Source: Eledone cirrhosa
Taxonomy: Eukaryota
Reading direction: 5' to 3'
Assembly: GCA_964016885.1 (NCBI GenBank)
Contig: OZ024743.1
Coordinates: 92,070,001-92,134,000, forward strand
DNA: 64,000 bases
Under the pieces are notes generated by a model, which was given only the letters and a program-made list of their open reading frames with translations, was not told where the DNA came from and did not search any database. Position numbers and translations under genes: made by a program. Within the stretch, counting starts at the first letter, position 1. The number at the start of each line of letters is the position of its first letter. Shown in pieces: positions 4,176 through 52,059 of the stretch.

Positions 4176-7100
4176 CTCTTTGAGTCTCAGTCATTGATGT
4201 TAGTTAACTGGAGAGTTTGTTGAAATGAATATCAAGCCACTACCTGCAGCCTCAGATATTCAGGACGTATCGGAGGGTTCTTGCTGTTCCCAGCAAGCAT
4301 GCCTTTTGAAGCGTTCCAAAAAGCGTGAAGGGGCCAATTTTCTTTAACCATCCCTGGAAACTTTTTGAGATAGTCCCTAGTGCGCCTATGACAATCGGGA
4401 TCACTTTGACTTCATGGCAGTTCCAAATCCTTTTTACCTCCCACTTTAAGTCCTGGTATCGGTTAATTTTCTCCCTCTCCTTCTCTTGCACTCTCGTGTC
4501 GAATGGGCAGGCCACATCCACAATCAGGCACGATCTTTTTTCTTTGTTCAGGTCTATTGTGTTCCAGTTTCTTGTCCGTCTGTATCCTAAAATCCCACAG
4601 CACCTTCACCTGATCGTTTTCTATCACCGCCTCTGGCTTATGCTCATACCACTTCTCAGAATGTGGTAAATTGTTTACTTTGAATAGGTGCCAGTGGATC
4701 ACCCTGCCCATCACATCATGTCTCCAGCCCTTATAGTCTCCTCTCTCTCTCCACAGATCCTGCACAGTGGGCTCGCCTCCTCCTTGTAAATGTGGTGTTT
4801 CAACCACTTCGTTTTGAGGGCCTGCTCCTGCGCAGCCATTAACATTCCTTCTGTAGCCTTTTTAAGGTCTCCTCTTTTCAACCAGTTCCATGTCTGTGGA
4901 TCTCTAAATTCAGTTTTCTCAAAGAAGGTACTATGAAGGGATTTTTCCTGAAGGCTGCTCTTTCTCCTTGATGTTATTTCCTCCTTGGACATCCCCTGGC
5001 CTATTGTCTCCTCCTTCAGTACAGTTCTGAGCATTGGCTCCTTACTATCAGTCACGTATTTGTGTAGGTTGTTTTTCTCCATCTGAACACAGTCCTATAT
5101 GCTGATAAGACCTCTTCCACCTTCAGATCTCCTTAAGTAGAGTCTATCGACATCACTCCTCTTGTGGAACATATTGTAGATAGTCAATAGCTTCCTAGTC
5201 TTCCTATCCATTTCTTTTTGTTCAGCAACATTTCATCTCAGAACTCCCGCACTGTACCTAATAATAGACACAGCTCGGGAATTTACTGCACTTATGGCAT
5301 TCCTACTGTTCAGATGTGACTTTAATACGCTCCTCACTCTCCGAAGGTATTCAGTTCTTATCAATTCCTTCATTATTTTGTTCTTGATGTCATCAGCCTC
5401 CGGAACGCCCAAATACTTGTATCCTTCCTCAGAGTCAATTTCCTTTATCATCTCACCTGTTGATATCTGGATTCCGTTACTTCTGCTCAACTTACCCCTC
5501 CTCATCACAATGACTCCACACTTACTAATACCAAATTGCATACATATATCATTGCTGAAAATACGGACAGTGTCAACAAGCACATCCAACTCCTTCTCAC
5601 TCTTCCCGAAGAGCTTAAGATCGTCCATGAAGAGGAGGTGATTGATGGTAAGCCCTCCCTTTCCCAACCTGTATCCTGCTCTCACTTTTCGCAGTACACT
5701 GGTCAGGGGCATCAGGGCCAGGACAAACAACAGAGGGGACAGACTATCTCCCTGGAAGATACCTCTCTTGATGTTCACGCTTCCCAAGGATTCTCCAGTT
5801 GATGTCAACTCTGTTTCCCAGGACTTCATACTTTTGCCCAACAACTGTCTGATGTTATCTGCCACCTTGAAGATCTCCAGGCTTTTGGTGATCCAAGAAT
5901 GAGGCACCATGTCAAATGCCTTTTTGTAGTCTATCCATCCCATGGCAAGACCAGTGTGTCTCCTCTTGCAATTCCTCATTACCATCTTATCAATAAGTAA
6001 CTGGTCCTTTGTACCACGTGACTTCTTTCGGCATCCTTTCTGTTCGTCCGGTAACAAGTTGTTTGTGTGGAGGTGATGGTAGATTTCCTTAGACATAATG
6101 CTTGTCAACAGTTTCCACATTACGGACAGACATGTGATAGGTCTATAGTTGGTAACATCATTACCCTTGATTCGGTCTTTCATTATCAGAATTGTGGTAC
6201 ATTTTGTCAACCACTCTGGTACCTCACCTGACATCAAGCAGTCATTGAACATGGTTGTCAGTTTCGGGTGGAGGGATGTTATGTTTTTAATCCAATACCC
6301 CTGCACACCATCTGGGCCAGGTGATTTCCAGTTGGTTAGTTTTTTGGCCTGCCCCTTAAGAGTTTCAACTGTGATACTCAAATCAGTTTGTTGGTGTGCC
6401 TATTCACTGATCTCCTTCTGTACTGTCTCAATCCACACTGCCTGGCCATTATGTTTAACATCCTGCTCCCATATTCCTCTCCAGAATTGTTTAGTTTGTT
6501 CCGCCTCAGGGATCAAGTCGTTGCCTCTTTCTTTCCCTTCAAGCTGTCCAAACAGCATCTTCTGGTTGTTGTCGAACATGCGGTTCTGTCTATACTGACT
6601 GACTCTGTTCTCGTATCGCCTGATTTTTGCACTCTTTGCTACAATGCGTTGCTTCAGTTCCTCTATGATAATATTTAGCTTTTTCCTCCTAGTTTTGTAC
6701 TTTATTTCCAGTCTATTTTTAGTGTCTATGTTTTTTAGTGTCCCATTCAGTAGGGACTCAAGCTTTCCAATGTCATTTCTCATTTCCCTGATTTGACCAC
6801 TCAGTCGTTTCTTCCACCAAGGCTCTGCTCTTTCTTGTCTGTTGTTTCCTCTCGCTTTTATACCAAGTAGTTTCCTCACCGTATTTGCTGTTGCTTTGAG
6901 GATATTGTTGCACTGGTGAAGGCTCCTCGCCTCAAGGTATGGGATGACTTTGTTACCTTAGCTGTTGTTTCTTTTAACTTTTTCCTGTCTACAAATCTTA
7001 GGTTCATAGGTCTCCCACTATCATTGTTCAATTCATCTACCACTAAGTTTAGGATATATACCAAATCTTGTCCTAGCCCGTCAGCATTCATCTCCTCAGT

Positions 7101-7654: not shown

Positions 7655-10600
7655 GTTATTGTTATTCCTTGAATCTCAGTCATTGATGTTGGTTAACTGG
7701 AAAGTCCGTTGGATTGAATATCAAGCCACTACCTGCAGCCTCAGATATTCAGGACGTATCGGAGGGTTCTTGCTGTTCCAAGCAAGCATGCCTTTTGAAG
7801 CGTTCCAAAAAGCGTGAAGGGGCCGATTTTCTTTAACCATCCCTGGAAACTTTTGGAGATAGTCCCCAGTGCGCCTATGACAATCGGGATCACTTTGACT
7901 TCATGGCAGTTCCAAATCCTTTTCACCTCCCACTTTAGGTCCTGGTATCGGTTAATTTTCTCCCTCTCCTTCTCTTGCACTCTCGTGTCGAACGGGCAGG
8001 CCACATCCACAATCAGGCACGATCTTTTTTCTTTGTCCACAACCACCAGGTCAGGTCTATTGTGTTCCAGTTTTTTGTCCGTCTGTATCCTAAAATCCCA
8101 CAGCACCTTCACCTGATTGTTCTCCATCACCGCCTCTGGCCTATGCTCATACCATTTCTCAGAATGTGGTAGATTGTTTACTTTGCACAGGTGCCAGTGG
8201 ATCACCCTGCCCATCACATCGTGTCTCCAGCCCTTATAGTGGGTCTGGGCTAGGTGTTTACACTCGGACACAATGTGAGCCACAGTCTCCTCTCTCTCTC
8301 CACAGATCCTGCACAGTGGGCTGGCCTCCTCCTTGTAGATATGGTGCTTCAACCACTTCGTTTTGAGGGCCTGCTCCTGCGCAGCCATTAGCATTCCTTC
8401 TGTAGCCTTTTTGAGGTCTCCTCTTCTCAACCAGTTCCATGTCTGTGGATCTCTAAATTCAGTTTTCTCAAAGAAGGTACTATGAAGGGGTTTTCCCTTA
8501 AGGCTGCTCTTCCTCCTTGATGTTATTTCCTCCCTGGACATCCCCTGGCCTACTGTCCCCTCCTTCAGTACAGCTCTGAGCATTGGCTCCTTACTATAGG
8601 TCACGTATTTGTATAGGTTGTTTTTCTCCATCTGAACACAGTCCTCTATGCTGATAAGACCTCTTCCACCCTCAGATCTCCTTAGGTAGAGTCTATCGAC
8701 ATCACTCCTCTTGTGGAACATGTTGTAGATAGTCAATAGCTTCCTAGTCTTCCTATCCATTTCTTTCTGTTCAGCAACATTCCATCTCAGAATTCCCGCA
8801 CTGTACCTAATAATAGACACAGCTCGGGAATTTACTGCGCTTATGGCATTTCTGCTGTTCAGATGTGACTTCAATACGCTCCTTACTCTCCGAATGTATT
8901 CAGTTCTTAACAATTCCTTCATTTTTTTGTTCTTTATGCCATCAGCCTCCAGAACGCCCAAATACTTGTATCCTTCCTCAGAGTCAATTTCCTTTATCAT
9001 CTCACCTGTTGGTATCTGGATCCCGTTACTTCTGCTCAACCTACCCCTCTTCATCACAATGACTCCACATTTACCAATACCAAACTGCATACATATATCA
9101 CTGCTGAAAATACGGACAGTGTCAACAAGCACATCCAACTCCTTCTCACTTTTCCCGAAGAGCTTAAGATCGTCCATGAAGAGGAGGTGATTGATGGTAA
9201 GCTCTCCCCTTCCCAACTTGTATCCTGCTCTCACTTTTCGCAGCATAATGGTCAAGGGCATCAGGGCAAGGACAAACAACAGAGGGGACAGGCTATCTCC
9301 CTGGAAGATACCTCTCTTGATCTTCACGCTTCCCAAGGATACTCCAGTTGATGTCAACTCTGTCTCCCAGGACCCCATACTCCTGCCTAGCAACTGTCTG
9401 ATGTTATCCGCCACCCTGAAGATCTCCAGGCTTTTGGTGATCCAGGAATGAGGCACCATGTCAAATGCCTTTCTGTAGTCTATCCATCCCATGGCAAGAT
9501 CAGTGTGTCTCCTCCTGCAATTCCCCATTACCATCTTATCAATAAGCAACTGGTCCTTTGTACCACGTGACTTCTTTCGGCATCCTTTCTGTTCGTCCGG
9601 TAACAAGTTGTTTGTGTGGGGGTGATGGTAGATTTCCTCAGACACAATGCTCGTCAACAGTTTCCACATTACGGGCAGACATGTGATAGGTCTATAGTTG
9701 GTAGCATCATTACCCTTGATTCGGTCTTTCATTATCAGAACTGTGGTACCTTTTGTCAACCACTCTGGCACCTCACCCGACACCAAGCAGTCATTGAACA
9801 TGGCCGTCAGCTTCGGGTGGAGGGATGTTAGATGTTTAATCCAATACCCCTGCACACCATCTGGGCCTGGCGATTTCCAGTTGGTTAGTTTTTTGGCTTG
9901 TCCCTTAAAAGTTTCAACTGTGATACTCAAATCAGTCTGTTGCTGTGCCTGCTCACCGATCTCCCTCTGTACTGTCTCAATCCACCCTGCCTGGGCATTG
10001 TGTCTAACATCCTGCTCCCATATTCCTCTCCAGAATGTTTTAGTTTGCTCCGCCCCAGGGATCAAGTCGTTGCCTCTTTCTTTGCCCTCAAGCTGTCCAA
10101 ACAGCATCTTCTGGTTGTTGTCGAACATGCGGTTCTGTTTATACTGACTGACTCTGTTCTCGTATCGCCTGATTTTTGCACTCTTTGCTACAATGCGTTG
10201 CTTCAATTCCTCTATGATAATATTTAGCTTTTTACTCCTAGTTTTGTATTTTATTTCCAGTCTATTTTTAGTGCCTATGTTTTTTAGTGTCCCATTCAGT
10301 AGTGACTCAAGCTTTCCTATGTCATTTCTCATTTCCCCGATTTGCCCACTCAGTCGCTTCTTCCACCACGGCTCTGCTCTTTCTTGTCTGTTGTTTCCTC
10401 TCGCTTTTATACCAAGTAGTTTCCTCACCGTATTTGCTGTTGCTCTGAGGATATTGTTGCACTGGTGAAGGCTCCTCGCCTCAAGGTATGGGATGACTTT
10501 GTTTACCTTAGCTGTTGTTTCTTTTAACTTTTTCCTGTCTACAAATCTTAGGTTCATAGGTCTCCCACTATCATTGTTCAATTCATCTACCACTAAATTT

Positions 10601-10875
10601 AGGATGTCAACCGAATCTTGTCCTAGCCCGTCAGCATTCATCTCCTCAGTGGCCGTATCTCTGTTCCAGGTATTATTTATCTCAGTACTCAGATCATTGT
10701 CTGCTTCGGGTGGTTCCTCCGTTCTCAGGACCTCCTCACCTTCATTTCCCACCGGCTCGCTTGTCTGGCATACTACACCCGCCATCTCCAAGCCATTCTC
10801 TCTGCTCAGTTCCTCCAGTTCCAGCTCGCTTATCCACCCATTAGTTCTTATTACCCGAGCCTGCCCGGCCATATT
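7655..10875 (-). mobile_element. R4/Dong-clade non-LTR retrotransposon, 5'-truncated, young
   Basis: Flanked by (TAA)n at 7629-7654 and 10880-10905; short 3'UTR; single uninterrupted ORF. Confidence 0.95.
7741..10872 (-). CDS. Reverse transcriptase + CCHC zinc knuckle + restriction-like endonuclease polyprotein
   Basis: KSPGPDG, NYRPITCL, IDYRKAFDMVPHSW, GIFQGDSLSPLLF, LFMDDLKL, CRICGEREETVAHIVSEC, RHD, RPDLVV...IVDVACP...EKINRYQDL. Confidence 0.95.
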   Translation of the reverse strand: MAGQARVIRTNGWISELELEELSRENGLEMAGVVCQTSEPVGNEGEEVLRTEEPPEADNDLSTEINNTWNRDTATEEMNADGLGQDSVDILNLVVDELNNDSGRPMNLRFVDRKKLKETTAKVNKVIPYLEARSLHQCNNILRATANTVRKLLGIKARGNNRQERAEPWWKKRLSGQIGEMRNDIGKLESLLNGTLKNIGTKNRLEIKYKTRSKKLNIIIEELKQRIVAKSAKIRRYENRVSQYKQNRMFDNNQKMLFGQLEGKERGNDLIPGAEQTKTFWRGIWEQDVRHNAQAGWIETVQREIGEQAQQQTDLSITVETFKGQAKKLTNWKSPGPDGVQGYWIKHLTSLHPKLTAMFNDCLVSGEVPEWLTKGTTVLIMKDRIKGNDATNYRPITCLPVMWKLLTSIVSEEIYHHPHTNNLLPDEQKGCRKKSRGTKDQLLIDKMVMGNCRRRHTDLAMGWIDYRKAFDMVPHSWITKSLEIFRVADNIRQLLGRSMGSWETELTSTGVSLGSVKIKRGIFQGDSLSPLLFVLALMPLTIMLRKVRAGYKLGRGELTINHLLFMDDLKLFGKSEKELDVLVDTVRIFSSDICMQFGIGKCGVIVMKRGRLSRSNGIQIPTGEMIKEIDSEEGYKYLGVLEADGIKNKKMKELLRTEYIRRVRSVLKSHLNSRNAISAVNSRAVSIIRYSAGILRWNVAEQKEMDRKTRKLLTIYNMFHKRSDVDRLYLRRSEGGRGLISIEDCVQMEKNNLYKYVTYSKEPMLRAVLKEGTVGQGMSREEITSRRKSSLKGKPLHSTFFEKTEFRDPQTWNWLRRGDLKKATEGMLMAAQEQALKTKWLKHHIYKEEASPLCRICGEREETVAHIVSECKHLAQTHYKGWRHDVMGRVIHWHLCKVNNLPHSEKWYEHRPEAVMENNQVKVLWDFRIQTDKKLEHNRPDLVVVDKEKRSCLIVDVACPFDTRVQEKEREKINRYQDLKWEVKRIWNCHEVKVIPIVIGALGTISKSFQGWLKKIGPFTLFGTLQKACLLGTARTLRYVLNI

Positions 10876-10933
10876 ATCATTATTATTATTATTATTATTA
10901 TTATTGAAGCTACAGGATATGTACCAATCCACC

Positions 10934-11206
10934 AATTCAGTGGATGGAAAAAAGCAAGCGTGGACTAAATTCCAAGACATTGAAAAAATCACTGCCTACT
11001 TGGTCGGTGGCAAATTCAAAAGAATCAATCACGTGACATCGAGGTTAATCAGTGAGGAGTGGGGTGTTAAAAAGACAGTATCCAAGCCATTACTATGAAC
11101 TATAGTAGCAGTTTTGTCAAATTTTTGCTCAACAAAATAATTTGGAGTTAATTATAAAGAATTAGTATATTTAGTCCACGCTTTCTTTTTTTCCATCCAC
11201 TGAATT
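10934..11206. mobile_element. MITE-like element with ~37-bp terminal inverted repeats
   Basis: aattcagtggatggaaaaaagcaagcgtggactaaat (10934-10970) is inverted at 11169-11206. Confidence 0.7.
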
Positions 11207-12667: not shown

Positions 12668-13564
12668 TCATTTTTTCGTGTTCAGTAGTGGTTTAAATTT
12701 TTCAATGAAGAATTCTTCTTTATATCTGCGGAAATGTTCGTTACCCTACCATATCTTGAAGAAAGGGAAGATTGTGAATTTTCCCTTCCCGCATGATGCA
12801 AAGTGTGCGCTACATGTGGTATTTCTGACTGTGGGGTCTTTAATTTGTTGTTTATGTACCCGGACTCTATCATGTAATCCCGTTCCGGTTTCCCCAATGT
12901 AATACTCTTTACACTGTGGACATGTTGCGCAATATATTAGGTTTTTCGTTTTGCAGTTCATGTTTGCATTGACCTTGAAATTATCATGGTTTTTGAAGGA
13001 CAACTGTTTGCCCTCTTCGATGAGTTCACAGGTTCCACATCTAGGGTCCCCGCATTTCGTCACTTGCATTGATTCCATGTTGGTCGTAAATTTTGCCTTG
13101 GTAATTAGTTTTTTAAGGTTGGGTGCTTGGCGTCTGCTATAAATTATCTGTGTGTTTTTTAAGAGTGCATTCATTTTGGTAGATTGCTGTAGAAACGGGA
13201 GATACTGCTTAGCAGTTTTCACAATATTGATGTTCCCTGGGTTGTGAGTGATGACAAAAGAGATAGCAGGGTTTTCTTTTTTATGTTGTGGGTTTGGTTT
13301 TCTCAGTGTTGTTATTGGGATGTTCTTAGCCTTGGCTGCGTTGATGAGTTTCATCGGGTATTCTTGTTTTTTAAGGAATTTTTTCAGGTCACATAATCTT
13401 TTTTCTTGTAGTACGGGGTGTGTTGCTACAGTGCATATGCGCCTTGCCATGTTGAAGGGAATGTTCCTTTTCGTATGTGAGGGGTATGCTGACCGGAAAT
13501 TTAAGTATTGGTGTGTGTCAGTGGGTTTGCAAAATAGGTCCGTTATGATATATTCGGTTTGCAA
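12668..13564 (-). pseudogene. Penelope RT thumb/linker + GIY-YIG endonuclease, one frameshift near the C-terminus
   Basis: TDLFCKPTDTHQYL, CGDPRCGTC, NLIYCATCPQCKEYYIGETG..L.DRVRVH; the shifted frame continues EHFRRYKEEFFIEKFKPLLNTKK*. Confidence 0.9.
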
Positions 13565-13589
13565 AATAGGTCCGTTATGATATATTCGG

Positions 13590-14203
13590 TTGTTTACTTA
13601 TACCTCTTAAAAGGGTCTCATTATAATTCCGTCCCACCTAGTAAACCTTTCTTTAGTCTAGCAGTACCAGTGAGAGACTTGATAGCTGTCCTGAGGTTAT
13701 AGTAACCAGAAATTGTTTTTTTACATTTAATTGTTTTTTAACACTCCCGGTTTTTTTCTATATATTTACCCCATATTGTTTTACTTACTGTTTCGACTTC
13801 CTCCCCCCCCCCTAGTATCTTCTTTGACCTCCTGCCCAGCTGTGGTTGGCACTATCAATGCACGACTGGGTTTCATCCACCCCCTATCCCTCTTTCTTCT
13901 ACTGGCAGGTTCAGCTACCCCCTCCCTCCACAAACTGCCATGATAGAATTATTATGTCTCAACAACAAACTTTTGACCAATCCTTGTGACAATCACTTTT
14001 ACCATATATGGAATTACCCCCTGAGAAGCTCGGCTATTCAAATACCAGGATAAAAATTTTCATTTAGTCCAGAATTAGCCGTCGAAACGGCTTGAGCTCA
14101 GCCGCCGGGGTCCTACTCGTTCCTATTACCCACTCTACTACCCTAAGTATTGAGTACTTTGGTGCGTTATGGTCCATCTAGGTTCCTTACCACATTTCCT
14201 TCG

Positions 14204-16716: not shown

Positions 16717-19700
16717 GTGTCTTACTCTTAGTCTTAGATTCTTCCGCACCGTTCGGCACATCGAGCAGTAAGTACTCGCCAACGGTCACGATCAGCGACA
16801 ACTTTTTCGAGACTGTGCCAGGTGATGTTGGCTGCCATCGGGTCCTTCCGGAACGTTCGTCACCAGGTGATCCCTGGGCAACCCCGCCTCCGTTTACCGC
16901 CAGGCGGAGTCCAGTTCATCGCTGTTTTCGAATGCCGTTCATTTGGCAGACACATATATGGCCAGCCAGACGGCACCGACGCTCCATGACCACTCTTTGT
17001 AGGGTCCACGACTCGGCTCTCCGCAGGATCTCCTCGTTTCGCACTCAGTTGCGCCAGGACACACGAAGGATCTTTCGCAGGAACCACTGGTGGAAAGCGT
17101 TCAGCCGTCTCTCTATTTTTGCTATACTCTTCCAGGTCTCGCTCGCATAAAGCACTGTCGGCAGCACGATGCCCTTGTACAGGCGGAGCTTGCTCTTGGT
17201 GCTAATGCATGAAGACGACCAGACTGGGCACAGCTGCTGGAAAACTGCGGCTCCTTTGCCTATCCGACAGTTGATGTCGAGCTCCGCGTCGCCGCTGCCT
17301 GTCAGGATGCTGTCCAGGTAGGTGAAGTGATCGACTTCCTCGAGGTCCTGTTGGTTGACTCTGATCACTGGACCTGTGTTGCTGGCCGTTCTCATGACCT
17401 TGGTCTTTTTGGCGTTGATTCTCAGGCCGATCTTTTCCGCACTTTCTTGTAGGGATGTTGTTAGGGCCTGCAGATCTGCACTGTTTTCAGCAATCAAAGC
17501 GATGTCGTCGGCGAATGCCAGGTCCCTCAGCCTCGACTGCCTTCTCCGTGGGATTCCTCGACCGGGTCCTTCATCCATTCGCCTTAGTACGAAATCGGCT
17601 GCCAGCAGGAACAACAGTGGAGAGAGAATGCAACCCTGTCTGACTCCGGAGACAATGTCAAAGAACTCCGTCACATCGGACTCAGTCCGCACGCAGCAGC
17701 TGGAGTTTTCATACAGGGCCTTGAAAATGGCGATGAATCTTGCAGGAATGCCGTACAGTTGCGCAACATTCCACAGCGACTCCCAGTGTACACTGTCGAA
17801 TGCCTTCTGGAAATCAATAAAATTGACCGCTAAAGGCTGTTGTAGCTCAACGCATTGTTCGAGAATTTTGCGTAGTGTAAAGATCTGTTCCGTGCAAGAT
17901 CGATTTTTTCGGAAGCCGGTTTGTTCCTCCCGGAGCACAGAGTCGATGGCCTGCCGGAGTCGACGCAGCAGCACAGTGCAGAACGCCTTGCCTGGGACTG
18001 ACAGCAATGTGATACCACGCCAGTTGTTGCAGTCTACCAGGTTTCCCTTCTTCGGCAGTTTGACGATGACACCGCGCTCCCACTCAAGGGGAACCCGACC
18101 AACCCTCCAGCAGTGGTTCATCAAGTCTGTCAACGCCGTTATCGTGCTCTCCTCACCGAATTTGAGCAGCTCAGCAGAGATCTCATCCAGTCCGCCTGCT
18201 TTGCCGTTCCTCAAGTGGCTAATCGCATCTCTCGTCACTTGCTTGGTGATATGGTCCTCCAGACTTTGAGTACCTCAGTGGTTGCTGGAGTCTCCGCGGT
18301 CAAGTCTATCAGGGCGACCGGATTTTGGTTGGTTAAGCCTCTCCCAGAAGTGCTCCATCCATCTCTGCTCCTGTTCCGCTCCAATGGTCAACGTCTTGTC
18401 ATTTTTGTCCTTCACTAACATGCTGGCACCGCTCGAAATTCCTGTCAACTCCCTCACGATGCGGAACAGTGCTTTTGTGTCGTTTCGACCAGCAGCTTCC
18501 TCTGCCTCAGCACCCTTTTTCTCCAGCCAGTCACGTTTATCCCGCCGGCAGCTTCGCTTTACCAGTCAGTTGATTTGGCGGTATACGGCATCTCTTTTCT
18601 TTTGGTCTTCCTCCGATCTGGCAGAATCTCGCTCGACTTTTGCCTTTTTTCGTCTGTAAATCAGGTCCCACGTTGGTTCTTGGATCCATTTTTCCCTTCT
18701 CGTTCCTCGTCTTCGGCCAATAGTTTCTTGTGCTGCCTCAGTCACCGCTGTCGTGAACATCGTCCATTGATCTTCCAGATCTGCAGCCTCTCTCAACTGC
18801 TGGAATCGGTTGTGTAGCGCCAGTTGGTACAGTCGCGCTTGACCGGGATACTTCAGCTTCTCCACTGCATGTCCGTTTCTTCAGGCGCAGTTGAAGTTCC
18901 GCACATAGTAGGTGGTGGTCTGAGTCCACGTCCGCACCTTGGTCCACTCTGACGTCACGTACCGAGGACCGCCAGCGCTGGTTGATGCAGATGTAGTCGA
19001 TCTCGTTTCGGCTTTTCTGGTCCGGAGACTTCCAAGTAGCGTTGTGAATCGCCTTGTGTTTGAAATAGGTGTTGCTAATGCACAGCTGCAGTCTCTTGCA
19101 GTTGTCCGTGGTGACCGCAGCAGAACCGAATGGCTCAGTAACCTGTTCCAGTCTCTGTCTGTTGCAGCCAATCTGAGCGTTGAAATCATCGATCAGTAGT
19201 TTGATGTCATGGTTGGGCAAGTTATTAAATGTGTCCTGCAGCTGTTTGTAGAAGGCATCCTTGTCGATGTCGGTTGCGTCATCAATCGGTGCGTAGCTCT
19301 GAACAACAGTGATTTTCGCATGCCCACTTTGAAAACGGGAGGTTATGATGCGCTCGCTGACTGGCTCCCATCCAAATCAATGCTCGAGTTGCTCGGGCGC
19401 TAAGCACAAGTCTAAAGCCATGAACGTGCTTGTCTTGGTGTCCAGAGTAGAGCAGAGTTGTGTCTCCACTGTCACTCATCTTTCCGCTGCCGGTCCAGAG
19501 CATTTCACTCACGCCCAGAATGTCCAGCTGGTAGTGGTCGAACTCGCGAAGTAGCTGAGCCAGCTTTCCTGCCTGGTGTAGTGTACGCACGTTCCAAGTT
19601 CCAATTCGCATCTTTGTTTTGGTGCTCAGAATCCGGCTCATTGGAACCCCCACGTCCTTTCGGCTTTGGTGAGGTCCGTCTAGTGTGGAGTGTTTCCCAC

Positions 19701-20937: not shown

Positions 20938-21001
<64 letters not shown>

Positions 21002-21058
21002 CGTTTCTGAATTTGTTTAGCAACAAGATTCTTTATCTGAAAACGTGTGTTGAAACCG

Positions 21059-21506
21059 ATATTGTTATGCTTTGGGAGAGTCATGTTGCCAATAAGAAAC
21101 ACACGCACCAATTGCTTTCACTCCAATTTATTATAAATTAAATTTATAAATTTAAGAATTTATAAATTTCCGGTTCGTTGGTTGGTTCCACAACCGGACG
21201 GTTGTTCATATATTGTCAAAGTTCTTTCGTCACATATTCTGTGACCTCTTCAGTGACTGGGGATTCTTTTCTTTGTTTTTGCGCCTCTCCTTTGTTCTAT
21301 CCTACGCCAACTTCACTGAAGAGGTCACAGAGTGTGTGACGAAAGAACTTTGACAATATATGAACAACCGTCCGGTTGTGGAACCAACCAACCAACCAAC
21401 CGGAAATTTATAAATTCTTAAATTTATAAATTTAATTTATAATAAATTGGAGTGAAATCAACTGGTGCGTGTGTTTCTTATTGGCAACATGACTCTCCCA
21501 AAGCAT

Positions 21507-21514
<8 letters not shown>
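21059..21514. mobile_element. Family-B fold-back element, ~200-bp inverted arms, 56-bp spacer
   Basis: 21059-21256 is the reverse complement of 21313-21514 with few mismatches; each arm starts with a hammerhead motif; embedded in (TA)n. Confidence 0.85.
21313..21353 (+). ncRNA. Type I hammerhead ribozyme motif (mirror copy at 21216-21256, minus strand)
   Basis: tca-CTGAAGA-g-GTCAC-agagtgt-GTGAC-GAAAG-aa-CTT-tga. Confidence 0.7.
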
Positions 21515-21581
<67 letters not shown>

Positions 21582-21593
21582 TAAAACGAAGTC

Positions 21594-22411: not shown

Positions 22412-22550
22412 AATCATCAGGGCCTTCCTGATGATTTCTCACGAATGAAACAGGTTTAGTCCTGTAGAAGCCATTTCTATATTTATACTCTGCTATGTAT
22501 TGAGTACCTTACTTATTGTGGTTACGCCCGATTCAACCCGGGATAAACTT
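22412..22550 (+). mobile_element. Short element with hammerhead-like core; related fragment at 30630-30720 (minus)
   Basis: CTGATGA-tttc-tcac-gaat-GAAAC-ag-GTT at 22428, preceded by the inverted copy aatcatcagg. Confidence 0.55.
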
Positions 22551-22569
22551 ATATATATATATATATATA

Positions 22570-22863
22570 TAGTGAAATAAGATAACAAGGACGATTGGTT
22601 ACTCCGTCATTACGTTTATTGGTTGGTGACGCGCGTTTCGCCACTGATCAGCTCAAGGTTCGATCTGTATCGATCTGACCCGACTCTGTAATCCGCGGCT
22701 CGTCAGACCCCTTGTAATGTTACAATGTGACGAGCCGCGGATTACAGAGTCGGGTCAGATCAATACAGGTCGAACCTTGAGCTGATCAGTGGCGAAACGC
22801 GCGTCACCAACCAATAAACGTAATGAAGGAGTAACCAATCGTCCTTGTTATCTTATTTCACTA
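22570..22863. mobile_element. Family-D palindromic element, ~135-bp arms
   Basis: The whole element is an inverted repeat around a ~22-bp spacer, between (TA)n tracts. Confidence 0.85.
22625..22709 (-). ncRNA. Type I hammerhead ribozyme motif with extended stem II
   Basis: ggt-CTGACGA-GCCGC...GTGGC-GAAAC-GCGC-GTC-acc, followed by AATAAA. Confidence 0.85.
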
Positions 22864-22888
22864 TATATATATATATATATATATATAG

Positions 22889-34725: not shown

Positions 34726-37700
34726 TATTAAATTTAAGGAAGTGGCTATATAGCCGGTCCCGGTAAATAGACTCCCAGGTTATTTAGCCGGTAAGAGTGT
34801 CAGACAGCATGAGTTGCGACCCGAGTTAAGACAATTGTTAAGACAATTTGAAATCTTTTCCACCATCAATTGTTAAAAAAACAAGTTAAAATCATTTAGT
34901 CATCATCTTATTATAATTCTACTTGTGTTTTGTCCCTTCGTAACATACGTTATGCTTTCGTTACATACACATATTTAATGAGTTACATACACACACATCT
35001 ACTGAGTTACATACACACATATCTACTGAGTTACATACACACACACAGATCTACTGAGTTACATACACACATATCTACTGAGTTACATACACACACATAT
35101 CTAATGAGTTACATACACACACATCTACTGAGTTACATACACACATATCTACTGAGTTACATACACACATATCTACTGAGTTACATACACACACATCTAC
35201 TGAGTTACATACACACACAACTACTGAGTTACATACACACATATCTACTGAGTTACATACACACACATCTACTGAGTTACATACACACATATCTACTGAG
35301 TTACATACACACATATCTACTGAGTTACATACACACACAACTACTGAGTTACATACACACACATATCTACTGAGTTACATACACACACATCTACTGAGTT
35401 ACATACACACACATCTACTGAGTTACATACACACATATCTACTGAGTTACATACACACACATCTACTGAGTTACATACACACATATCTACTGAGTTACAT
35501 ACACACACAACTACTGAGTTACATACACACATATCTACTGAGTTACATACACACACATCTACTGAGTTACATACACACACATCTACTGAGTTACATACAC
35601 ACACATCTACTGAGTTACATACACACACATCTACTGAGTTACATACACACATATCTACTGAGTTACATACACACACATATCTACTGAGTTATATACACAC
35701 ACATCTACTGAGTTACATACACACACATCTACTGAGATACATACACACACATCTACTGAGTTACATACACACACATATCTACTGAGTTACATACACACAC
35801 ATCTACTGAGTTACTTACACACACATCTACTGAGTTACATACACACATATCTACTGAGTTACATACACACACAACTACTGAGTTACATACACACACATCT
35901 ACTGAGTTACATACACACACATCTACTGAGTTACATACACACACATATCTACTGAGTTACATACACACATATCTACTGAGTACATACACACACATCTACT
36001 GAGTTACATAGACACATATCTACTGAGTTACATACACACACATCTACTGAGTTACATACACACATATCTACTGAGTTACATACACACACATATCTACTGA
36101 GTTATATACACACACATCTACTGAGTTACATACACACACATCTACTGAGATACATACACACATATCTACTGAGTTACATACACACATATCTACTGAGTTA
36201 CATACACACACATATCTACTGAGTTAAATACACACACATCTACTGAGTTACATACACACACAACTAATGTGTTACATACACACACATCTACTGAGTTACA
36301 TACACACACATTTACTGAGTTACATACACACACATTTACTGAGTTACATACACACACATCTACTGAGTTACATACACACACATCTACTGAGTTACATACA
36401 CACACATTTACTGAGTTACATACACACACATTTACTGAGATACATATACACACATCTACTGAGTTACATACACACACATCTACTGAGTTACATACACACA
36501 CATCTACTGAGTTACATACACACATATCTACTGAGTTACATACACACACATCTACTGAGTTACATACACACACATATCTACTGAGTTACATACACACATA
36601 TCTACTGAGTTACATACACACATATCTACTGAGTTACAGACACACACATATCTACTGAGTTACATACACACATATCTACTGAGTTACATACACACACATC
36701 TACTGAGTTACATACACACACAACTACTGAGTTACATACACACATATCTACTGAGTTACATACACACATATCTACTGAGTTACATACACACACATATCTA
36801 CTGAGTTACATACACACACATCTACTGAGTTACATACACACACATCTACTGAGTTACATACACACACATCTACTGAGTTACATACACACACATATCTACT
36901 GAGTTACATACACACATATCTACTGAGTTACATACACACATATCTACTGAGTTACATACACACACAACTACTGTGTTACATACACACATATCTACTGAGT
37001 TACATACACACACATCTACTGAGTTACATACACACATATCTACTGAGTTACATACACACACATTTACTGAGTTACATACACACATATCTACTGAGTTACA
37101 TACACACACATATCTACTGAGTTACATACACACACATCTACTGAGTTACATACACACACATCTACTGAGTTACATACACACATATCTACTGAGTTACATA
37201 CACACACATATCTACTGAGTTACATACACACATCTACTGAGTTACATACACACACATCTACTGAGTTACATACACACACATCTACTGAGTTACATACACA
37301 CATATCTACTGAGTTACATACACACACAACTACTGAGTTACATACACACATATCTACTGAGTTACATACACACACATCTACTGAGTTACATACACACACA
37401 TCTACTGAGTTACATACACACACATCTACTGAGTTACATACACACACATCTACTGAGTTACATACACACATATCTACTGAGTTACATACACACACATATC
37501 TACTGAGTTATATACATACACATCTACTGAGTTACATACACACACATCTACTGAGATACGTACACACACATCTACTGAGTTACATACACACACATATCTA
37601 CTGAGTTACATACACACACATCTACTGAGTTACTTACACACACATCTACTGAGTTACATACACACATATCTACTGAGTTACATACACACACAACTACTGA

Positions 37701-40700
37701 GTTACATACACACACATCTACTGAGTTACATACACACACATCTACTGAGTTACATACACACACATATCTACTGAGTTACATACACACATATCTACTGAGT
37801 ACATACACACACATCTACTGAGTTACATACACACATATCTACTGAGTTACATACACACACATCTACTGAGTTACATACACACATATCTACTGAGTTACAT
37901 ACACACACATATCTACTGAGTTACATACACACACATCTACTGAGTTACATACACACACAACTACTGTGTTACATACACACACATCTACTGAGTTACATAC
38001 ACACACATTTACTGAGTTACATACACACACATTTATTGAGTTACATACACACACATCTACTGAGTTACATACACACACATCTACTGAGTTACATACACAC
38101 ACATTTACTGACTTACATACACACACATTTACTGAGATACATATACACACATCTACTGAGTTACATACACACACATCTACTGAGTTACATACACACACAT
38201 CTACTGAGTTACATACACACATATCTACTGAGTTACATACACACACATCTACTGAGTTACATACACACACATATCTACTGAGTTACATACACACATATCT
38301 ACTGAGTTACATACACACATATCTACTGAGTTACATACACACACATATCTACTGAGTTACATACACACATATCTACTGAGTTACATACACACACATCTAC
38401 TGAGTTACATACACACACATCTACTGAGTTACATACACACACATATCTACTGAGTTACATACACACATATCTACTGAGTTACATACACACATATCTACTG
38501 AGTTACATACACACACAACTACTGTGTTACATACACACATATCTACTGAGTTACATACACACACATCTACTGAGTTACATACACACATATCTACTGAGTT
38601 ACATACACACACATTTACTGAGTTACATACACACATATCTACTGAGTTACATACACACACATATCTACTGAGTTACATACACACACATCTACTGAGTTAC
38701 ATACACACACATCTACTGAGTTACATACACACATATCTACTGAGTAACATACACACACATATCTACTGAGTTACATACACACATCTACTGAGTTACATAC
38801 ACACACATCTACTGAGTTACATACACACACATCTACTGAGTTACATACACACACATCTACTGAGTTACATACACACACATCTACTGAGTTACATACACAC
38901 ACATCTACTGAGATACATACACACACATCTACTGAGTTACATACACACATATCTACTGAGTTACATACACACACATCTACTGAGTTACATACACACACAT
39001 ATCTACTGAGTTACATACACACACATCTACTGAGTTACATACACACACATCTACTGAGATACATACACACACATCTACTGAGTTACATACACACATATCT
39101 ACTGAGTTACATACACACACATCTACTGAGTTACATACACACATATCTACTGAGTTACATACACACACATCTACTGATTTACATACACACATATCTACTG
39201 AGTTACATACACACACATATCTACTGAGTTACATACACACACATCTACTGAGTTACATACACATATCTACTGAGTTACATACACATCTACTGAGTTACAT
39301 ACACACACATATCTACTGAGTTACATACACACACATCTACTGAGTTACATACACACACATCTACTGAGTTACATACACACATATCTACTGAGTTTCATAC
39401 ACACACAACTACTGTGTTACATACACACATATCTACTGAGTTACATACACACACATCTACTTAGTTACATACACACATATCTACTGAGTTACATACACAT
39501 ACATCTACTGAGTTACATACACACATATCTACTGAGTTACATACACACACATATCTACTGAGTTACATACACACACATCTACTGAGTTACATACACACAC
39601 ATCTACTGAGTTACATACACACATATCTACTGAGTTACATACACACATATCTACTGAGTTACATACACACACATCTACTGAGTTACATACACACACATCT
39701 ACTGAGTTACATACACACACATCTACTGAGTTACATACACACACATCTACTGAGTTACATACACACATATCTACTGAGTTACATGCACACACATCTGAGT
39801 TACATACACACATATCTACTGAGTTACATACACACATATATCTACTGAATTACATACACACACATCTACTAAGTTACATACACACACATTTACTGAGTTA
39901 CATACACACATATCTACTGAGTTACATACACACACATCTACTGAGTTACATACACACATATCTACTGAGTTACATACACACACATATCTACTGAGTTACA
40001 TACACACACATATCTACTGAGTTACATACACGCACATCTACTGAGTTACATACACACACATATCTACTGAGTTACATACACACATATCTACTGAGTTACA
40101 TACACACACATCTACTGAGTTGCATACACACATATCTACTGAGTTACATACACACACATCTACTGAGTTACATACACACATATCTACTGAGTTACATACA
40201 CACACATATCTACTAAGTAACATACACACACATCTACTGAGTTACATACACATATATCTACTGAGTAACATACACACACATATCTACTGAGTTACATACA
40301 CACACATCTACTGAGTTACACACACACACGTCTACTGAGTTACATACACACATCTACTGAGTTACATACACACACATATCTACTGAGTTACATACACACA
40401 CATCTACTGAGTTACATACACACACATCTACTGAGATACATACACACACATCTACTGAGTTACATACACACATATCTACTGAGTTACATACACACACATA
40501 TCTACTGAGTTACATACACACATCTACTGAGTTACATACACACACATCTACTGAGTTACATACACACACATCTACTGAGTTACATACACACACATCTACT
40601 GAGTTACATACACACATATCTACTGAGTTACATGCACACACATCTGAGTTACATACACACATATCTACTGAGTTACATACACACACATATCTACTGAGTT

Positions 40701-43700
40701 ACATACACACACATCTACTGAGTTACATACACACGCATATCTACTGAGTTACATACACACACATCTACTGAGTTACATACACACACATCTACTGAGATAC
40801 ATACACACACATCTACTGAGTTACATACACACATATCTACTGAGTTACATACACACACATCTACTGAGTTACATACACACACATATCTACTGAGTTACAT
40901 ACACACACATCTACTGAGTTACATACACACACATCTACTGAGATACATACACACACATCTACTGAGTTACATACACACATATCTACTGAGTTACATACAC
41001 ACACATCTACTGAGTTACATACACACATATCTACTGAGTTACATACACACACATCTACTGATTTACATACACACATATCTACTGAGTTACATACACACAC
41101 ATATCTACTGAGTTACATACACACACATCTACTGAGTTACATACACATATCTACTGAGTTACATACACATCTACTGAGTTACATACACACACATATCTAC
41201 TGAGTTACATACACACACATCTACTGAGTTACATACACACACATCTACTGAGTTACATACACACATATCTACTGAGTTACATACACACACAACTACTGTG
41301 TTACATACACACATATCTACTGAGTTACATACACACACATCTACTGAGTTACATACACACATATCTACTGAGTTACATACACATACATCTACTGAGTTAC
41401 ATACACACATATCTACTGAGTTACATACACACACATATCTACTGAGTTACATACACACACATCTACTGAGTTACATACACACACATCTACTGAGTTACAT
41501 ACACACATATCTACTGAGTTACATACACACATATCTACTGAGTTACATACACACACATCTACTGAGTTACATACACACACATCTACTGAGTTACATACAC
41601 ACACATCTACTGAGTTACATACACACACATCTACTGAGTTACATACACACATATCTACTGAGTTACATGCACACACATCTGAGTTACATACACACATATC
41701 TACTGAGTTACATACACACATATATCTACTGAATTACATACACACACATCTACTAAGTTACATACACACACATTTACTGAGTTACATACACACATATCTA
41801 CTGAGTTACATACACACACATCTACTGAGTTACATACACACATATCTACTGAGTTACATACACACACATATCTACTGAGTTACATACACACACATATCTA
41901 CTGAGTTACATACAGGCACATCTACTGAGTTACATACACACACATATCTACTGAGTTACATACACACATATCTACTGAGTTACATACACACACATCTACT
42001 GAGTTGCATACACACATATCTACTGAGTTACATACACACACATCTACTGAGTTACATACACACATATCTACTGAGTTACATACACACACATATCTACTAA
42101 GTTACATACACACACATCTACTGAGTTACATACACATATATCTACTGAGTAACATACACACACATATCTACTGAGTTACATACACACACATCTACTGAGT
42201 TACATACACACACGTCTACTGAGTTACATACACACATCTACTGAGTTACATACACACACATCTACTGAGTTACATACACACATATCTACTGAGTTACATG
42301 CACACACATCTGAGTTACATACACACATATCTACTGAGTTACATACACACATATATCTACTGAATTACATACACACACATCTACTAAGTTACATACACAC
42401 ACATTTACTGAGTTACATACACACATATCTACTGAGTTACATACACACACATCTACTGAGTTACATACACACATATCTACTGAGTTACATACACACACAT
42501 ATCTACTGAGTTACATACACACACATATCTACTGAGTTACATACAGGCACATCTACTGAGTTACATACACACACATATCTACTGAGTTACATACACACAT
42601 ATCTACTGAGTTACATACACACACATCTACTGAGTTGCATACACACATATCTACTGAGTTACATACACACACATCTACTGAGTTACATACACACATATCT
42701 ACTGAGTTACATACACACACATATCTACTAAGTTACATACACACACATCTACTGAGTTACATACACATATATCTACTGAGTAACATACACACACATATCT
42801 ACTGAGTTACATACACACACATCTACTGAGTTACATACACACACGTCTACTGAGTTACATACACACATCTACTGAGTTACATACACACACATATCTACTG
42901 AGTTACATACACACACATCTACTGAGTTACATACACACACATCTACTGAGATACATACACACACATCTACTGAGTTACATACACACATATCTACTGAGTT
43001 ACATACACACACATCTACTGAGTTACATACACACACATATCTACTGAGTTACATACACACACATCTACTGAGTTACATACACACACATCTACTGAGATAC
43101 ATACACACACATCTACTGAGTTACATACACACATATATACTGAGTTACATACACACACATCTACTGAGTTACATACAGACATATCTACTGAGTTACATAC
43201 ACACACATCTACTGATTTACATACACACATATCTACTGAGTTACATACACACACATATCTACTGAGTTACATACACACACATCTACTGAGTTACATACAC
43301 ATATCTACTGAGTTACATACACATCTACTGAGTTACATACACACACATATCTACTGAGTTACATACACATACATCTACTGAGTTACATACACACACATCT
43401 ACTGAGTTACATACACACATATCTACTGAGTTACATACACACACAACTACTGTGTTACATACACACATATCTACTGAGTTACATACACACACATCTACTG
43501 AGTTACATACACTTATATCTACTGAGTTACATACACATACATCTACTGAGTTACATACACACATATCTACTGAGTTACATACACACACATATCTACTGAG
43601 TTACATACACACATATCTACTGAGTTACATACACACACATATCTACTGAGTTACATACACACATATCTACTGAGTTACATACACACACATCTACTGAGTT

Positions 43701-46700
43701 ACATACACACACAACTACTGAGTTACATACACACATATCTACTGAGTTACATACACACATATCTACTGAGTTACATACACACACATATCTACTGAGTTAC
43801 ATACACACACATCTACTGAGTTACATACACACACATCTACTGAGTTACATACACACACATCTACTGAGTTACATACACACACATATCTACTGAGTTACAT
43901 ACACACATATCTACTGAGTTACATACACACATATCTACTGAGTTACATACACACACAACTACTGTGTTACATACACACATATCTACTGAGTTACATACAC
44001 ACACATCTACTGAGTTACATACACACATATCTACTGAGTTACATACACACACATTTACTGAGTTACATACACACATATCTACTGAGTTACATACACACAC
44101 ATATCTACTGAGTTACATACACACACATCTACTGAGTTACATACACACACATCTACTGAGTTACATACACACATATCTACTGAGTAACATACACACACAT
44201 ATCTACTGAGTTACATACACACATCTACTGAGTTACATACACACACATCTACTGAGTTACATACACACACATCTACTGAGTTACATACACACACATCTAC
44301 TGAGTTACATACACACACATCTACTGAGTTACATACACACACATCTACTGAGATACATACACACACATCTACTGAGTTACATACACACATATCTACTGAG
44401 TTACATACACACACATCTACTGAGTTACATACACACACATATCTACTGAGTTACATACACACACATCTACTGAGTTACATACACACACATCTACTGAGAT
44501 ACATACACACACATCTACTGAGTTACATACACACATATCTACTGAGTTACATACACACACATCTACTGAGTTACATACACACATATCTACTGAGTTACAT
44601 ACACACACATCTACTGATTTACATACACACATATCTACTGAGTTACATACACACACATATCTACTGAGTTACATACACACACATCTACTGAGTTACATAC
44701 ACATATCTACTGAGTTACATACACATCTACTGAGTTACATACACACACATATCTACTGAGTTACATACACACACATCTACTGAGTTACATACACACACAT
44801 CTACTGAGTTACATACACACATATCTACTGAGTTTCATACACACACAACTACTGTGTTACATACACACATATCTACTGAGTTACATACACACACATCTAC
44901 TTAGTTACATACACACATATCTACTGAGTTACATACACATACATCTACTGAGTTACATACACACATATCTACTGAGTTACATACACACACATATCTACTG
45001 AGTTACATACACACACATCTACTGAGTTACATACACACACATCTACTGAGTTACATACACACATATCTACTGAGTTACATACACACATATCTACTGAGTT
45101 ACATACACACACATCTACTGAGTTACATACACACACATCTACTGAGTTACATACACACACATCTACTGAGTTACATACACACACATCTACTGAGTTACAT
45201 ACACACATATCTACTGAGTTACATGCACACACATCTGAGTTACATACACACATATCTACTGAGTTACATACACACATATATCTACTGAATTACATACACA
45301 CACATCTACTAAGTTACATACACACACATTTACTGAGTTACATACACACATATCTACTGAGTTACATACACACACATCTACTGAGTTACATACACACATA
45401 TCTACTGAGTTACATACACACACATATCTACTGAGTTACATACACACACATATCTACTGAGTTACATACACGCACATCTACTGAGTTACATACACACACA
45501 TATCTACTGAGTTACATACACACATATCTACTGAGTTACATACACACACATCTACTGAGTTGCATACACACATATCTACTGAGTTACATACACACACATC
45601 TACTGAGTTACATACACACATATCTACTGAGTTACATACACACACATATCTACTAAGTAACATACACACACATCTACTGAGTTACATACACATATATCTA
45701 CTGAGTAACATACACACACATATCTACTGAGTTACATACACACACATCTACTGAGTTACACACACACACGTCTACTGAGTTACATACACACATCTACTGA
45801 GTTACATACACACACATATCTACTGAGTTACATACACACACATCTACTGAGTTACATACACACACATCTACTGAGATACATACACACACATCTACTGAGT
45901 TACATACACACATATCTACTGAGTTACATACACACACATATCTACTGAGTTACATACACACATCTACTGAGTTACATACACACACATCTACTGAGTTACA
46001 TACACACACATCTACTGAGTTACATACACACACATCTACTGAGTTACATACACACATATCTACTGAGTTACATGCACACACATCTGAGTTACATACACAC
46101 ATATCTACTGAGTTACATACACACACATATCTACTGAGTTACATACACACAAATCTACTGAGTTACATACACACGCATATCTACTGAGTTACATACACAC
46201 ACATCTACTGAGTTACATACACACACATCTACTGAGATACATACACACACATCTACTGAGTTACATACACACATATCTACTGAGTTACATACACACACAT
46301 CTACTGAGTTACATACACACACATATCTACTGAGTTACATACACACACATCTACTGAGTTACATACACACACATCTACTGAGATACATACACACACATCT
46401 ACTGAGTTACATACACACATATCTACTGAGTTACATACACACACATCTACTGAGTTACATACACACATATCTACTGAGTTACATACACACACATCTACTG
46501 ATTTACATACACACATATCTACTGAGTTACATACACACACATATCTACTGAGTTACATACACACACATCTACTGAGTTACATACACATATCTACTGAGTT
46601 ACATACACATCTACTGAGTTACATACACACACATATCTACTGAGTTACATACACACACATCTACTGAGTTACATACACACACATCTACTGAGTTACATAC

Positions 46701-50579: not shown

Positions 50580-50920
50580 TAGCCTAATAGTGGGGTTTGT
50601 AAATCTCTAAGAAATGGAAAAAGATAAGTATTGGCGTACACGGGAGTCGAATCCACTATCAGGCTATAATTTCTTTAGTCAAAAGATACGGCGAAAGCTT
50701 CTATTTCTACTTTCAAACTCGCACCGTGTTTCAAAAGATACTTACTTGTCGTTATACTTGCTAAGAATGTAGCTTCTAATTTAAATGGAAGGAGATTGGT
50801 GATGTGTTGGTGTAATGGTAGCACAGTGGTCTGGATAACCAAAGATGTGAGTTCAACTCCCATGTACGTCATTACTCGTCTTTTTCCATATCTTAGAGTG
50901 TTCTAAACCCCACTATCAGG

Positions 50921-50924: not shown

Positions 50925-50958
<34 letters not shown>

Positions 50959-51057
50959 CAGGGAGTGTAACGCGGAATTACTGTAGGTTCACCCGGGTGA
51001 GCACTCGATGTTTAGGTTCACTTCAGTGACGAGGTATTGAGCTAGACAGAGTGTAAA

Positions 51058-51335
51058 ATAATAATACAAGGACGAATGGTTACTCCTTGATTACGTTTAT
51101 TGGTTGGTGACACGCGTTTCGCTACTGATCAGCTCAAGGTTCGATCTATATCGATCTGGCCCGACTCTGGAATCAAAAGCTCATCGGACCTCTGTCAACA
51201 GAGGCCCGATGAGCTTTTAATTCCAGAGTCGGGCCAGATCGATATAGATCGAACCTTGAGCTGATCAGTAGCGAAACGCGTGTCACCAACCAATAAACGT
51301 AATCAAGGAGTAACCATTCGTCCCTGTTTTATTAT
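51058..51335. mobile_element. Family-D palindromic element, second copy
   Basis: Near-perfect palindrome centred at 51196-51197; hammerhead-like CCGATGA-GCT...AGC-GAAAC-GCGT-GTC-acc on both arms. Confidence 0.85.
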
Positions 51336-52059
51336 ATATATATATATAAATACAGATTTGTTTTATAAATAAATATTGACATACCCGGAATAAAATAAAT
51401 ATGGTTTTATAAATGAAATAAATATGGTTTTATAAATATAGTTTCCATTGATTAATATATTGTGTATTTACTCCACTTATCTGTTGAGTGCTTTATATCA
51501 GTTATAAAAATGTTTAAGCTTGTTGAATCCCAACAAATTAAATATAACCTCTGCATATATATATATATATATCCATGTATGTATGCATACGTGTGCGTGT
51601 CTGTGTGTGCGTGTGATGTTTGCTACTTTGAATCCTAATAATTGCTTATCAATTAATGTATTGTTCTCTATTTATTCTCTATTTGCAGTTTACTCCTCCT
51701 TCGGACATCTTTTGTAAAAGGGAAGCTGAGTAAATAAAGAATCTCCCATTAAGGTGTAGTAAGTAAGTAAAACAATGAAATGGAGAACTGAATGGACGTC
51801 GTGTGAGCAATAGAAATACAACATATGAATAACGGTGTGAAGACAACACAGGTGGCCAGTGTCAGCGCCTTATCAATGTCACGTGACCAATATGTCAGTG
51901 TTGTCAATCAACTTCGTTGTCATCAATACTTCAATTCGACGAAAGAACACAAGTAAATTGACTACAACTGATTTGTGTTCCTCACCTATTGACAAAAGAG
52001 AGTATCGACAGCTGCAGTAACTGCATCATCAACAACAACAACAACGACAACTACTGATA

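Follow-up and report, generated by a model that had tools for sequence, protein, structure and literature searches.

For Penelope-like elements (PLEs), those of the Hydra clade included, an inverted, 5′-truncated copy that lies in (TA)n and is tailed on one side has already been published, and the hammerheads of Penelope-13_HM are tabulated on both strands (PMC8557442). Opposite-strand hammerhead pairs 100–700 bp apart were noted in Schistosoma in 2014 (PMC4209133). In vitro, another PLE nicked both strands of AT-rich DNA, and internal reverse transcriptase (RT) starts defined its tail (PMC11167929). PLE hammerheads are described as weak ribozymes that depend on dimers or protein and that insertion in vitro can do without (PMC4209133, PMC11167929). 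The short helix III of the minimal forms is thought to require dimers (PMC4209133), and the pseudo-LTR (pLTR) hammerhead of PAc, Poseidon of Anolis, was not required for in vitro insertion (PMC11167929). The formation of the tandem and inverted structures of PLEs is called unresolved in the cited papers.

The window, a 64-kb stretch of the Eledone cirrhosa genome, contains two palindromes, copy 1 (22570–22863) and copy 2 (51055–51336), both flanked by (TA)n runs. MITEs of TA-targeting DNA transposons are short and palindromic, have TA flanks, and occur in high copy number. Our results indicate that each palindrome is very probably a pair of 5′-truncated pLTR copies of a Hydra-clade PLE, placed head to head in (TA)n, likely by one target-primed reverse-transcription event. 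The palindromes are not MITEs. They do not form a new class either, since published PLE biology already explains them; they represent a new family within a known clade. The undescribed non-autonomous class considered in the original prediction thus gives way to the 5′-truncated ends of an autonomous Hydra-clade PLE, in an inverted, one-tailed layout already published for PLEs.

Aligned with its own reverse complement, copy 1 matched in 280 of 298 columns, and copy 2 in 268 of 284. The two complete palindromes originally proposed are confirmed to this extent, except that the left arm of copy 2 extends for a further ~100 nt to 50957. Copy 1 and copy 2 are 83% alike, no other copy lies within the 64-kb window, and alignment of the arms showed that those of one palindrome are not identical to each other. 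Arms were numbered from C3 of the core as the origin, with the short end at ~+137, the long end at ~+237, and the predicted cleavage at +79 (Table 1). The layout of an arm, read 5′ to 3′, is the 5′ core, GCC..GGC or GCT..AGC, GAAA, a palindromic stem III, UC, and AATAAA. No poly(A) follows AATAAA, whose distance to the short end is ~45 nt. Every arm had been described as a hammerhead with AATAAA and a terminus; this layout is present in all four, whereas the canonical core with a full helix I is found in the copy 1 left arm only. The right arm of copy 1 has G where C3 is expected. Both arms of copy 2 are cut 8–10 nt upstream of the core, and its right arm has a C·A mismatch at the closing pair of helix I. 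The symmetry center lies just upstream of the core in both copies, as predicted.

Table 1. Coordinates of the two palindromes, their parts, and a neighboring head-to-head hammerhead pair in the window.
Feature	Position	Strand	Remark
Left (TA)n target run, copy 1	22550..22571		
Copy 1 left arm	22570..22722	−	PLE 3′ end, −16 to short end +137
Type I hammerhead motif, copy 1 left arm	22608..22719	−	predicted
Distal helix I, copy 1 left arm	22719-22714 with 22613-22608	−	
Helix I, copy 1 left arm	22711-22707	−	
Core CUGACGA, copy 1 left arm	22706-22700	−	
Stem II domain, copy 1 left arm	22699-22640	−	
GAAA, copy 1 left arm	22639-22636	−	
Predicted cleavage, copy 1 left arm	3′ of C at 22628	−	
AATAAA, copy 1 left arm	22615..22620	−	in the putative internal loop of helix I
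Copy 1 inversion junction	22723..22727		5 nt separating the arms
Copy 1 right arm	22728..22863	+	begins at U4, without the helix I 5′ strand; short end
Right (TA)n target run, copy 1	22862..22887		
Left (TA)n target run, copy 2	50925..50953		
PLE tail, ~100 nt, copy 2 left arm only	50957..51056	−	5′ UTR toward the ORF in full-length copies
Copy 2 left arm	51057..51195	−	core CCGAUGA (U4C), C3 at 51187; 5′-truncated at −8
Copy 2 inversion junction	51196..51197		
Copy 2 right arm	51198..51335	+	core CCGAUGA, C3 at 51206; short end, then (TA)n to 51348
Cores of the second head-to-head hammerhead family	21253; 21316	−; +	

The arms matched the ends of ~3-kb RT and GIY-YIG elements in the same 3.0-Gb genome, where one degenerate 25-nt motif of the family had at least 4,062 exact matches. 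Genome searches with the arms yielded 2,031 and 5,671 first-look candidates, of which 40 were scored each time. Upstream sequence was common to the copies over varying lengths. In one locus (L031), the arm was connected through a ~1.1-kb 3′ UTR to a broken ORF with the RT thumb, a CxC-x5-C linker, and GIY-YIG. An RT-linked sample was formed from 20 of the 40 scored loci similar to this RT segment. The arm was found in 14 of the 20 loci, and in five an arm or tail stood immediately 5′ of the ORF start. Two loci (L084 and L087) had the order pLTR, tail, ORF, pLTR, tail, that is, partial tandem pLTRs with the hammerhead motif, which identifies the tail as the 5′ UTR. In two others (L088 and L091), a truncated ORF carried an inverted tailed arm on its 5′ side and an untailed arm on its 3′ side. 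This layout has its shortest form in the two palindromes of the window. The continuity of the arms with an RT–endonuclease element in the same genome bears out the predicted retro-mechanism rather than a MITE.

None of the 20 RT-selected loci held an unbroken ORF. In the broken copies, the motifs followed each other in order, RT and then a C-terminal GIY-YIG in one ORF: YRDD was seen in 13 copies, NCRH (CxH) in 12, CxC-x5-CPL in 10, CxxC..E in 10, ADKT in nine, IIY..YIG in nine, and RW(K/R)A in three. Neither Pfam nor a PDB sequence search recognized RT in the ORF pieces, and the Pfam GIY-YIG match of a relative was sub-threshold (E = 0.012). The RT call is based on the motifs, on five database proteins matching the ORF at 33–42%, and on protein atlas neighbors, which were clusters named RT (0.95). 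Judged from its motifs, the putative ORF matches the definition of the Hydra clade, published Hydra proteins having been compared by eye. No RNA run was among the matches listed for public sequencing runs containing the element. A second Hydra-type PLE family lies in pieces at L031:3086-4900, adjoining the truncated copy upstream.

The frequency of the arrangement was determined in two samples. The first comprised the first 60 loci by position that matched a core pattern including G5–A9. It contained 29 head-to-head pairs, 30 single arms, and one unclassified locus, which is head to head by eye; such a count of palindromic and single-arm copies had been proposed along with the original prediction. 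Both arms reached the core in 13 of the 29 pairs. The tail was on one arm in 23 pairs, on both in three, and on neither in three (binomial p = 0.001 against 0.5 for one tail), and two of the three tail-less pairs were disrupted near their ends. Because copy 1 has no tails and three pairs have two, 'one long, one short' is only a tendency. The second sample relied on a motif that lies 3′ of the cleavage site and outside the core, and it covered 70 of the first 77 places listed. It consisted of 72 arms in 67 loci, with five loci counted twice and at least three loci common to the first sample. An inverted partner was found for 36 of the 72 arms, with exactly one tail in 34 of these. The one-tail pattern also extended to arms separated by 1.1 and 1.8 kb (L224/L225 and L211/L212).

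Two fixed 3′ ends, ~100 nt apart (~+137 and ~+237), characterize the family; at these sites the element's own sequence is TATA and ATAT. Among 88 arms, the 3′ end was short in 44, long in 27, and other in 17. (TA)4 adjoined 22 of the 27 long and 22 of the 44 short ends, compared with a background of 9%. At the 5′ side, 12 of the 72 arms of the second sample ended beyond −50, 31 between −50 and −1, 25 between 0 and 70, and four between 71 and 86, the last showing no excess around the predicted cleavage site at +79. In the core-selected sample, 51 of 64 5′ ends were at most 50 nt upstream of the core. This stop zone just upstream of the ribozyme places the palindrome center just upstream of the core. 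The 60 positional loci contained no short head-to-tail tandem units. Another repeat, of ~150–190 bp, is often located at the AT-rich short-end site (~+130), parting the arm from the tail (L103, L131, and others).

Fifty-seven inversion junctions were mostly different: 20 had a 1–5-nt overlap, two were blunt, and 35 had extra letters, some of which reflect imperfect alignment. As a clonality test, five junction patterns were searched in the genome. The patterns of copy 1 (28 nt) and copy 2 (24 nt) each had a single match, and two others recurred 8 and 9 times. The 8-fold set spans three sub-lineages, and in both recurrent sets the tail was on either arm; these observations point to microhomology hot spots. 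Clonal amplification of the palindromes was rejected by the junction patterns, except for one pair of loci, L094 and L095 (G000:C1:18734769 and 20398758). These lie 1.7 Mb apart in unrelated flanks, have an identical junction and a private variant, and bear their tails on opposite arms; the junction matched these two loci only, genome-wide. Re-mobilization or ectopic gene conversion could explain them. Both arms of a pair belonged to the same sub-lineage, and the arms within pairs shared 19 rare variants in 15 loci, compared with 0.09–0.22 per random pair. This is consistent with one source template, or with later arm-to-arm homogenization or conversion. Five opposite-strand joints of the family occur in public-run contigs, all from one study, which possibly sequenced the source sample.

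We infer a start from two primers by analogy with PAc and with L1 twin priming, which is a loose parallel for a two-primed insertion. The endonuclease of the element would nick both (TA)n strands, and each nick would prime a cDNA at an internal RNA position, the short-end site serving one cDNA and the long-end site the other. Both sites carry a TATA/ATAT microhomology. The two cDNAs would halt early, in most cases no farther than 50 nt upstream of the core, where the RNA probably has its 5′ end; their joining would often occur at 1–5-nt microhomologies. A transcript of the product would fold to a ~135-bp hairpin that conceals the ribozyme, which makes the palindromes probable dead ends. They likely have no activity, beyond at most giving rise to dsRNA. 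The L094/L095 pair, with its shared junction, private variant, and opposite tails, is a point against a pure dead-end model.

Alternatively, one PLE end could have been inserted first, with the new cDNA giving rise to the second arm through fold-back or a template switch, or with palindrome repair adding it later. The rare variants common to the two arms, well above chance, fit this order of events, as do two loci with two tails and many shared variants (L103 and L120) and a 10-nt fold-back in L002. However, 17 of the 36 partners bear a tail that is missing from the main arm, so that RNA or a longer template is needed, and copying from the first arm does not agree with the one-tail pattern at arm spacings of 1.1 and 1.8 kb. 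We consider this route quite improbable. Re-copying of palindromic units by the PLE protein is highly unlikely in our view. It would turn them into a non-autonomous class of head-to-head ribozyme cassettes, and it could draw on the head-to-head share of about half of the sampled loci, on the two junction patterns recurring 8 and 9 times, and on L094/L095, which in unrelated flanks have a junction in common together with a variant absent from all other loci examined. Yet the L094 junction has only 2 genome matches, and this pair may stem from ectopic gene conversion. The recurrent junctions fall at short microhomologies with the tail on either arm, the 8-fold set in three sub-lineages; both window junctions are unique in the genome, the 57 junctions mostly differ, and both arms reach the core in just 13 of 29 pairs.

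The TA flanks, the 280–290-bp palindrome, and the high copy number would also suit a MITE of a TA-targeting DNA transposon, and an assembly artifact could be suspected. Both have a negligible probability. The ends are asymmetric, the center is variable, half of the copies are single-armed, and the arms are continuous with an RT ORF; as to an artifact, the arms differ from each other, and the five opposite-strand joints occur in public-run contigs (one study, possibly the source sample). The family lacks fixed symmetric terminal inverted repeats and a uniform size, and no cognate transposase appeared in the loci analyzed. The original prediction had named two findings that would together speak against it, a cognate DNA transposase and non-conserved core nucleotides. 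The core is indeed not conserved in the larger lineages, whereas the inverted arms enclose an RT–endonuclease ORF instead of a transposase. Two 5′-truncated pLTR copies joined head to head in one target-primed event thus remain our preferred reading.

The fold of the hammerhead motif was assessed in a covariation alignment of 36 arms; seven arms with indels were dropped, and arms without helix I were ineligible. In the proposed three-helix structure, 87% of the cells were paired, compared with 24–42% when the partners were slid. The predicted covariation at the base of stem II (GCC/GGC versus GCT/AGC) extends to the whole family: U–A was found in 16 of the 36 arms, C–G in 13, U–G in four, and three were unpaired. 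A second stem II pair steps through C–G, U–G, and U–A, one helix I pair shifts from G–C to A–U, and one neighboring G–U turns into U·U. The double changes at three pairs are lineage-level and represent few events, not independent samples. Pairs changed on both sides were not above chance against shuffles (252/500), controls that ignore relatedness. In helix III, the double changes resemble those expected from CpG decay. Basal stem II kept 8–9 of its 9 pairs in six of seven lineages, the seventh having two members. The stem II domain of 60 nt is composed of this 9-bp basal stem and ~40 nt of further structure with an inner hairpin, and the internal GATC-6nt-GATC hairpin described for the window copies is present and folds.

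The core has drifted between lineages. U4 was found in 16 of 17 arms of lineage S1 and C4 in 29 of 34 arms of lineage S2, and lineage S3 has the core CCGUCGA (U4C+A6U), with 980 exact genome matches. S3 was hidden in the first sample, since the pattern used there contained G5–A9, and was exposed by the second one. In the latter, 34 readable arms comprised nine canonical, eight U4C, 15 U4C+A6U, and two A6U cores. The invariant core C3 U4 G5 A6 G8 A9 G12 A13 A14 is kept in S1 and in the copy 1 left arm, and not in S2 and S3. U4C has less activity in vitro and still permits viroid infectivity, and an A6C hammerhead variant is slow (PMC3088659). For A6U, no paper was found in a literature search conducted mostly outside subscription journals. 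No hammerhead family was present among the 150 listed of 170 Rfam matches for the window.

According to the folding calculations, the monomer would lack helix III, and its hammerhead fold would lie 6–7 kcal/mol above the minimum (7 for the best window arm). A 2017 paper reportedly dealt with dimers of PLE hammerheads. The modeled folds of the whole palindromes had −265 and −251 kcal/mol with 140 and 133 pairs. A transcript across either palindrome would thus be a hairpin of 133–140 pairs, and the arms could not act as a ribozyme pair in cis. Tentatively, the hammerhead may have become a non-catalytic structure, with helices I–III and the 60-nt stem II kept by compensatory changes while the U4C and the U4C+A6U lineages grew to some thousand copies or more each. 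In that case the fold would be a binding or positioning site for the RT–endonuclease, and two-primer insertion would be recorded in the thousands of inverted pairs that have one tail. We regard this scenario as possible and rather doubtful.

The window has further features. At ~20940–21585, a second, unrelated hammerhead family stands head to head in a long palindrome with (TA)n flanks, as expected if inversion is general PLE behavior. Type I hammerhead motifs of other families lie at 22424–22549 (+), 33254 (−), and 16213 (−). The motif at 22428 adjoins the TA run of copy 1 and is very high-copy in public contigs, with opposite-strand joints. An open 1084-aa frame at 7741–10995 (−) shows RVT_1 (E 4e-23), a zinc-binding motif, and a C-terminal restriction-like motif; it resembles an R4/Dong-type LINE. 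Two more RT fragments and a weak GIY-YIG match (E 4e-4) are located at 5233–6399 (−), 17045–18274 (−), and 12746–13597 (−). A 14-kb tandem array at 34960–49196 contains 589 copies of a 24-bp unit with 91% matches. A tRNA-like sequence, tRNA-Ser(gga) per ARAGORN and possibly a SINE head, lies at 50800–50872 (+), ~85 nt left of copy 2.

Palindromic PLE copies of this type would be taken for MITEs in repeat libraries. The canonical, U4C, and U4C+A6U cores form a natural series on one conserved fold, which bears on the role of PLE hammerheads. With their bias toward one tail, the thousands of short inverted insertions constrain the origin of the tandem and inverted structures of PLEs. It is worth noting besides that one locus pair (L094/L095) shares a junction. 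The literature search, mostly outside subscription journals, turned up no description of a palindromic, non-autonomous class of PLEs.

In comparison with known systems, the family resembles the Hydra-clade PLEs (Craig et al. 2021, PMC8557442; Penelope-13_HM, Hydra-1_Obim) in the C-terminal GIY-YIG, the RWK, DKT, CxCX5C, CxxC, and CxH motifs, the ~3-kb size, the (TA)n target, the type I hammerhead in the pLTR, and the inverted 5′-truncated 5′ copy. It is distinct from the tabulated Hydra members in three respects. Its stem II domain has 60 nt and an inner hairpin, whereas loop 2 of the tabulated hammerheads has 3–10 nt; its high-copy lineages have drifted to CCGACGA and CCGUCGA, whereas all tabulated cores begin with CUGA; and its tail is ~100 nt long, compared with the 30–40 bp stated for PLEs (PMC8557442). 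Moreover, ~110 extra residues lie between the RT thumb and the linker relative to the Hydra clade. Like PAc (Frangieh et al. 2024, PMC11167929), the family has two internal RT starts that bound an optional tail, and an AT-rich target. In PAc, the ORF begins in stem II and the RT starts lack target homology (PMC11167929), whereas the Eledone family has its ATG ~280 nt downstream of the core in the full-length layout and TATA/ATAT microhomology at both ends. The PLE minimal hammerheads (Cervera and de la Pena 2014, PMC4209133) are likewise of type I, with a short palindromic helix III and many solo copies; their helix II has 7–8 bp, compared with the 9-bp basal stem and ~40 nt found here. Non-LTR retrozymes (bioRxiv 10.64898/2026.07.22.740005) are similar in being non-coding, PLE-derived, and equipped with a type I hammerhead, and the terms 'palindrom', 'opposite', and 'head-to-head' are absent from the accessible text of that preprint. 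They form head-to-tail tandems, in contrast to the head-to-head Eledone palindromes with their variable junctions. Unlike MITEs, finally, these palindromes have no fixed symmetric termini, no clonal center, and an RT element as their parent.
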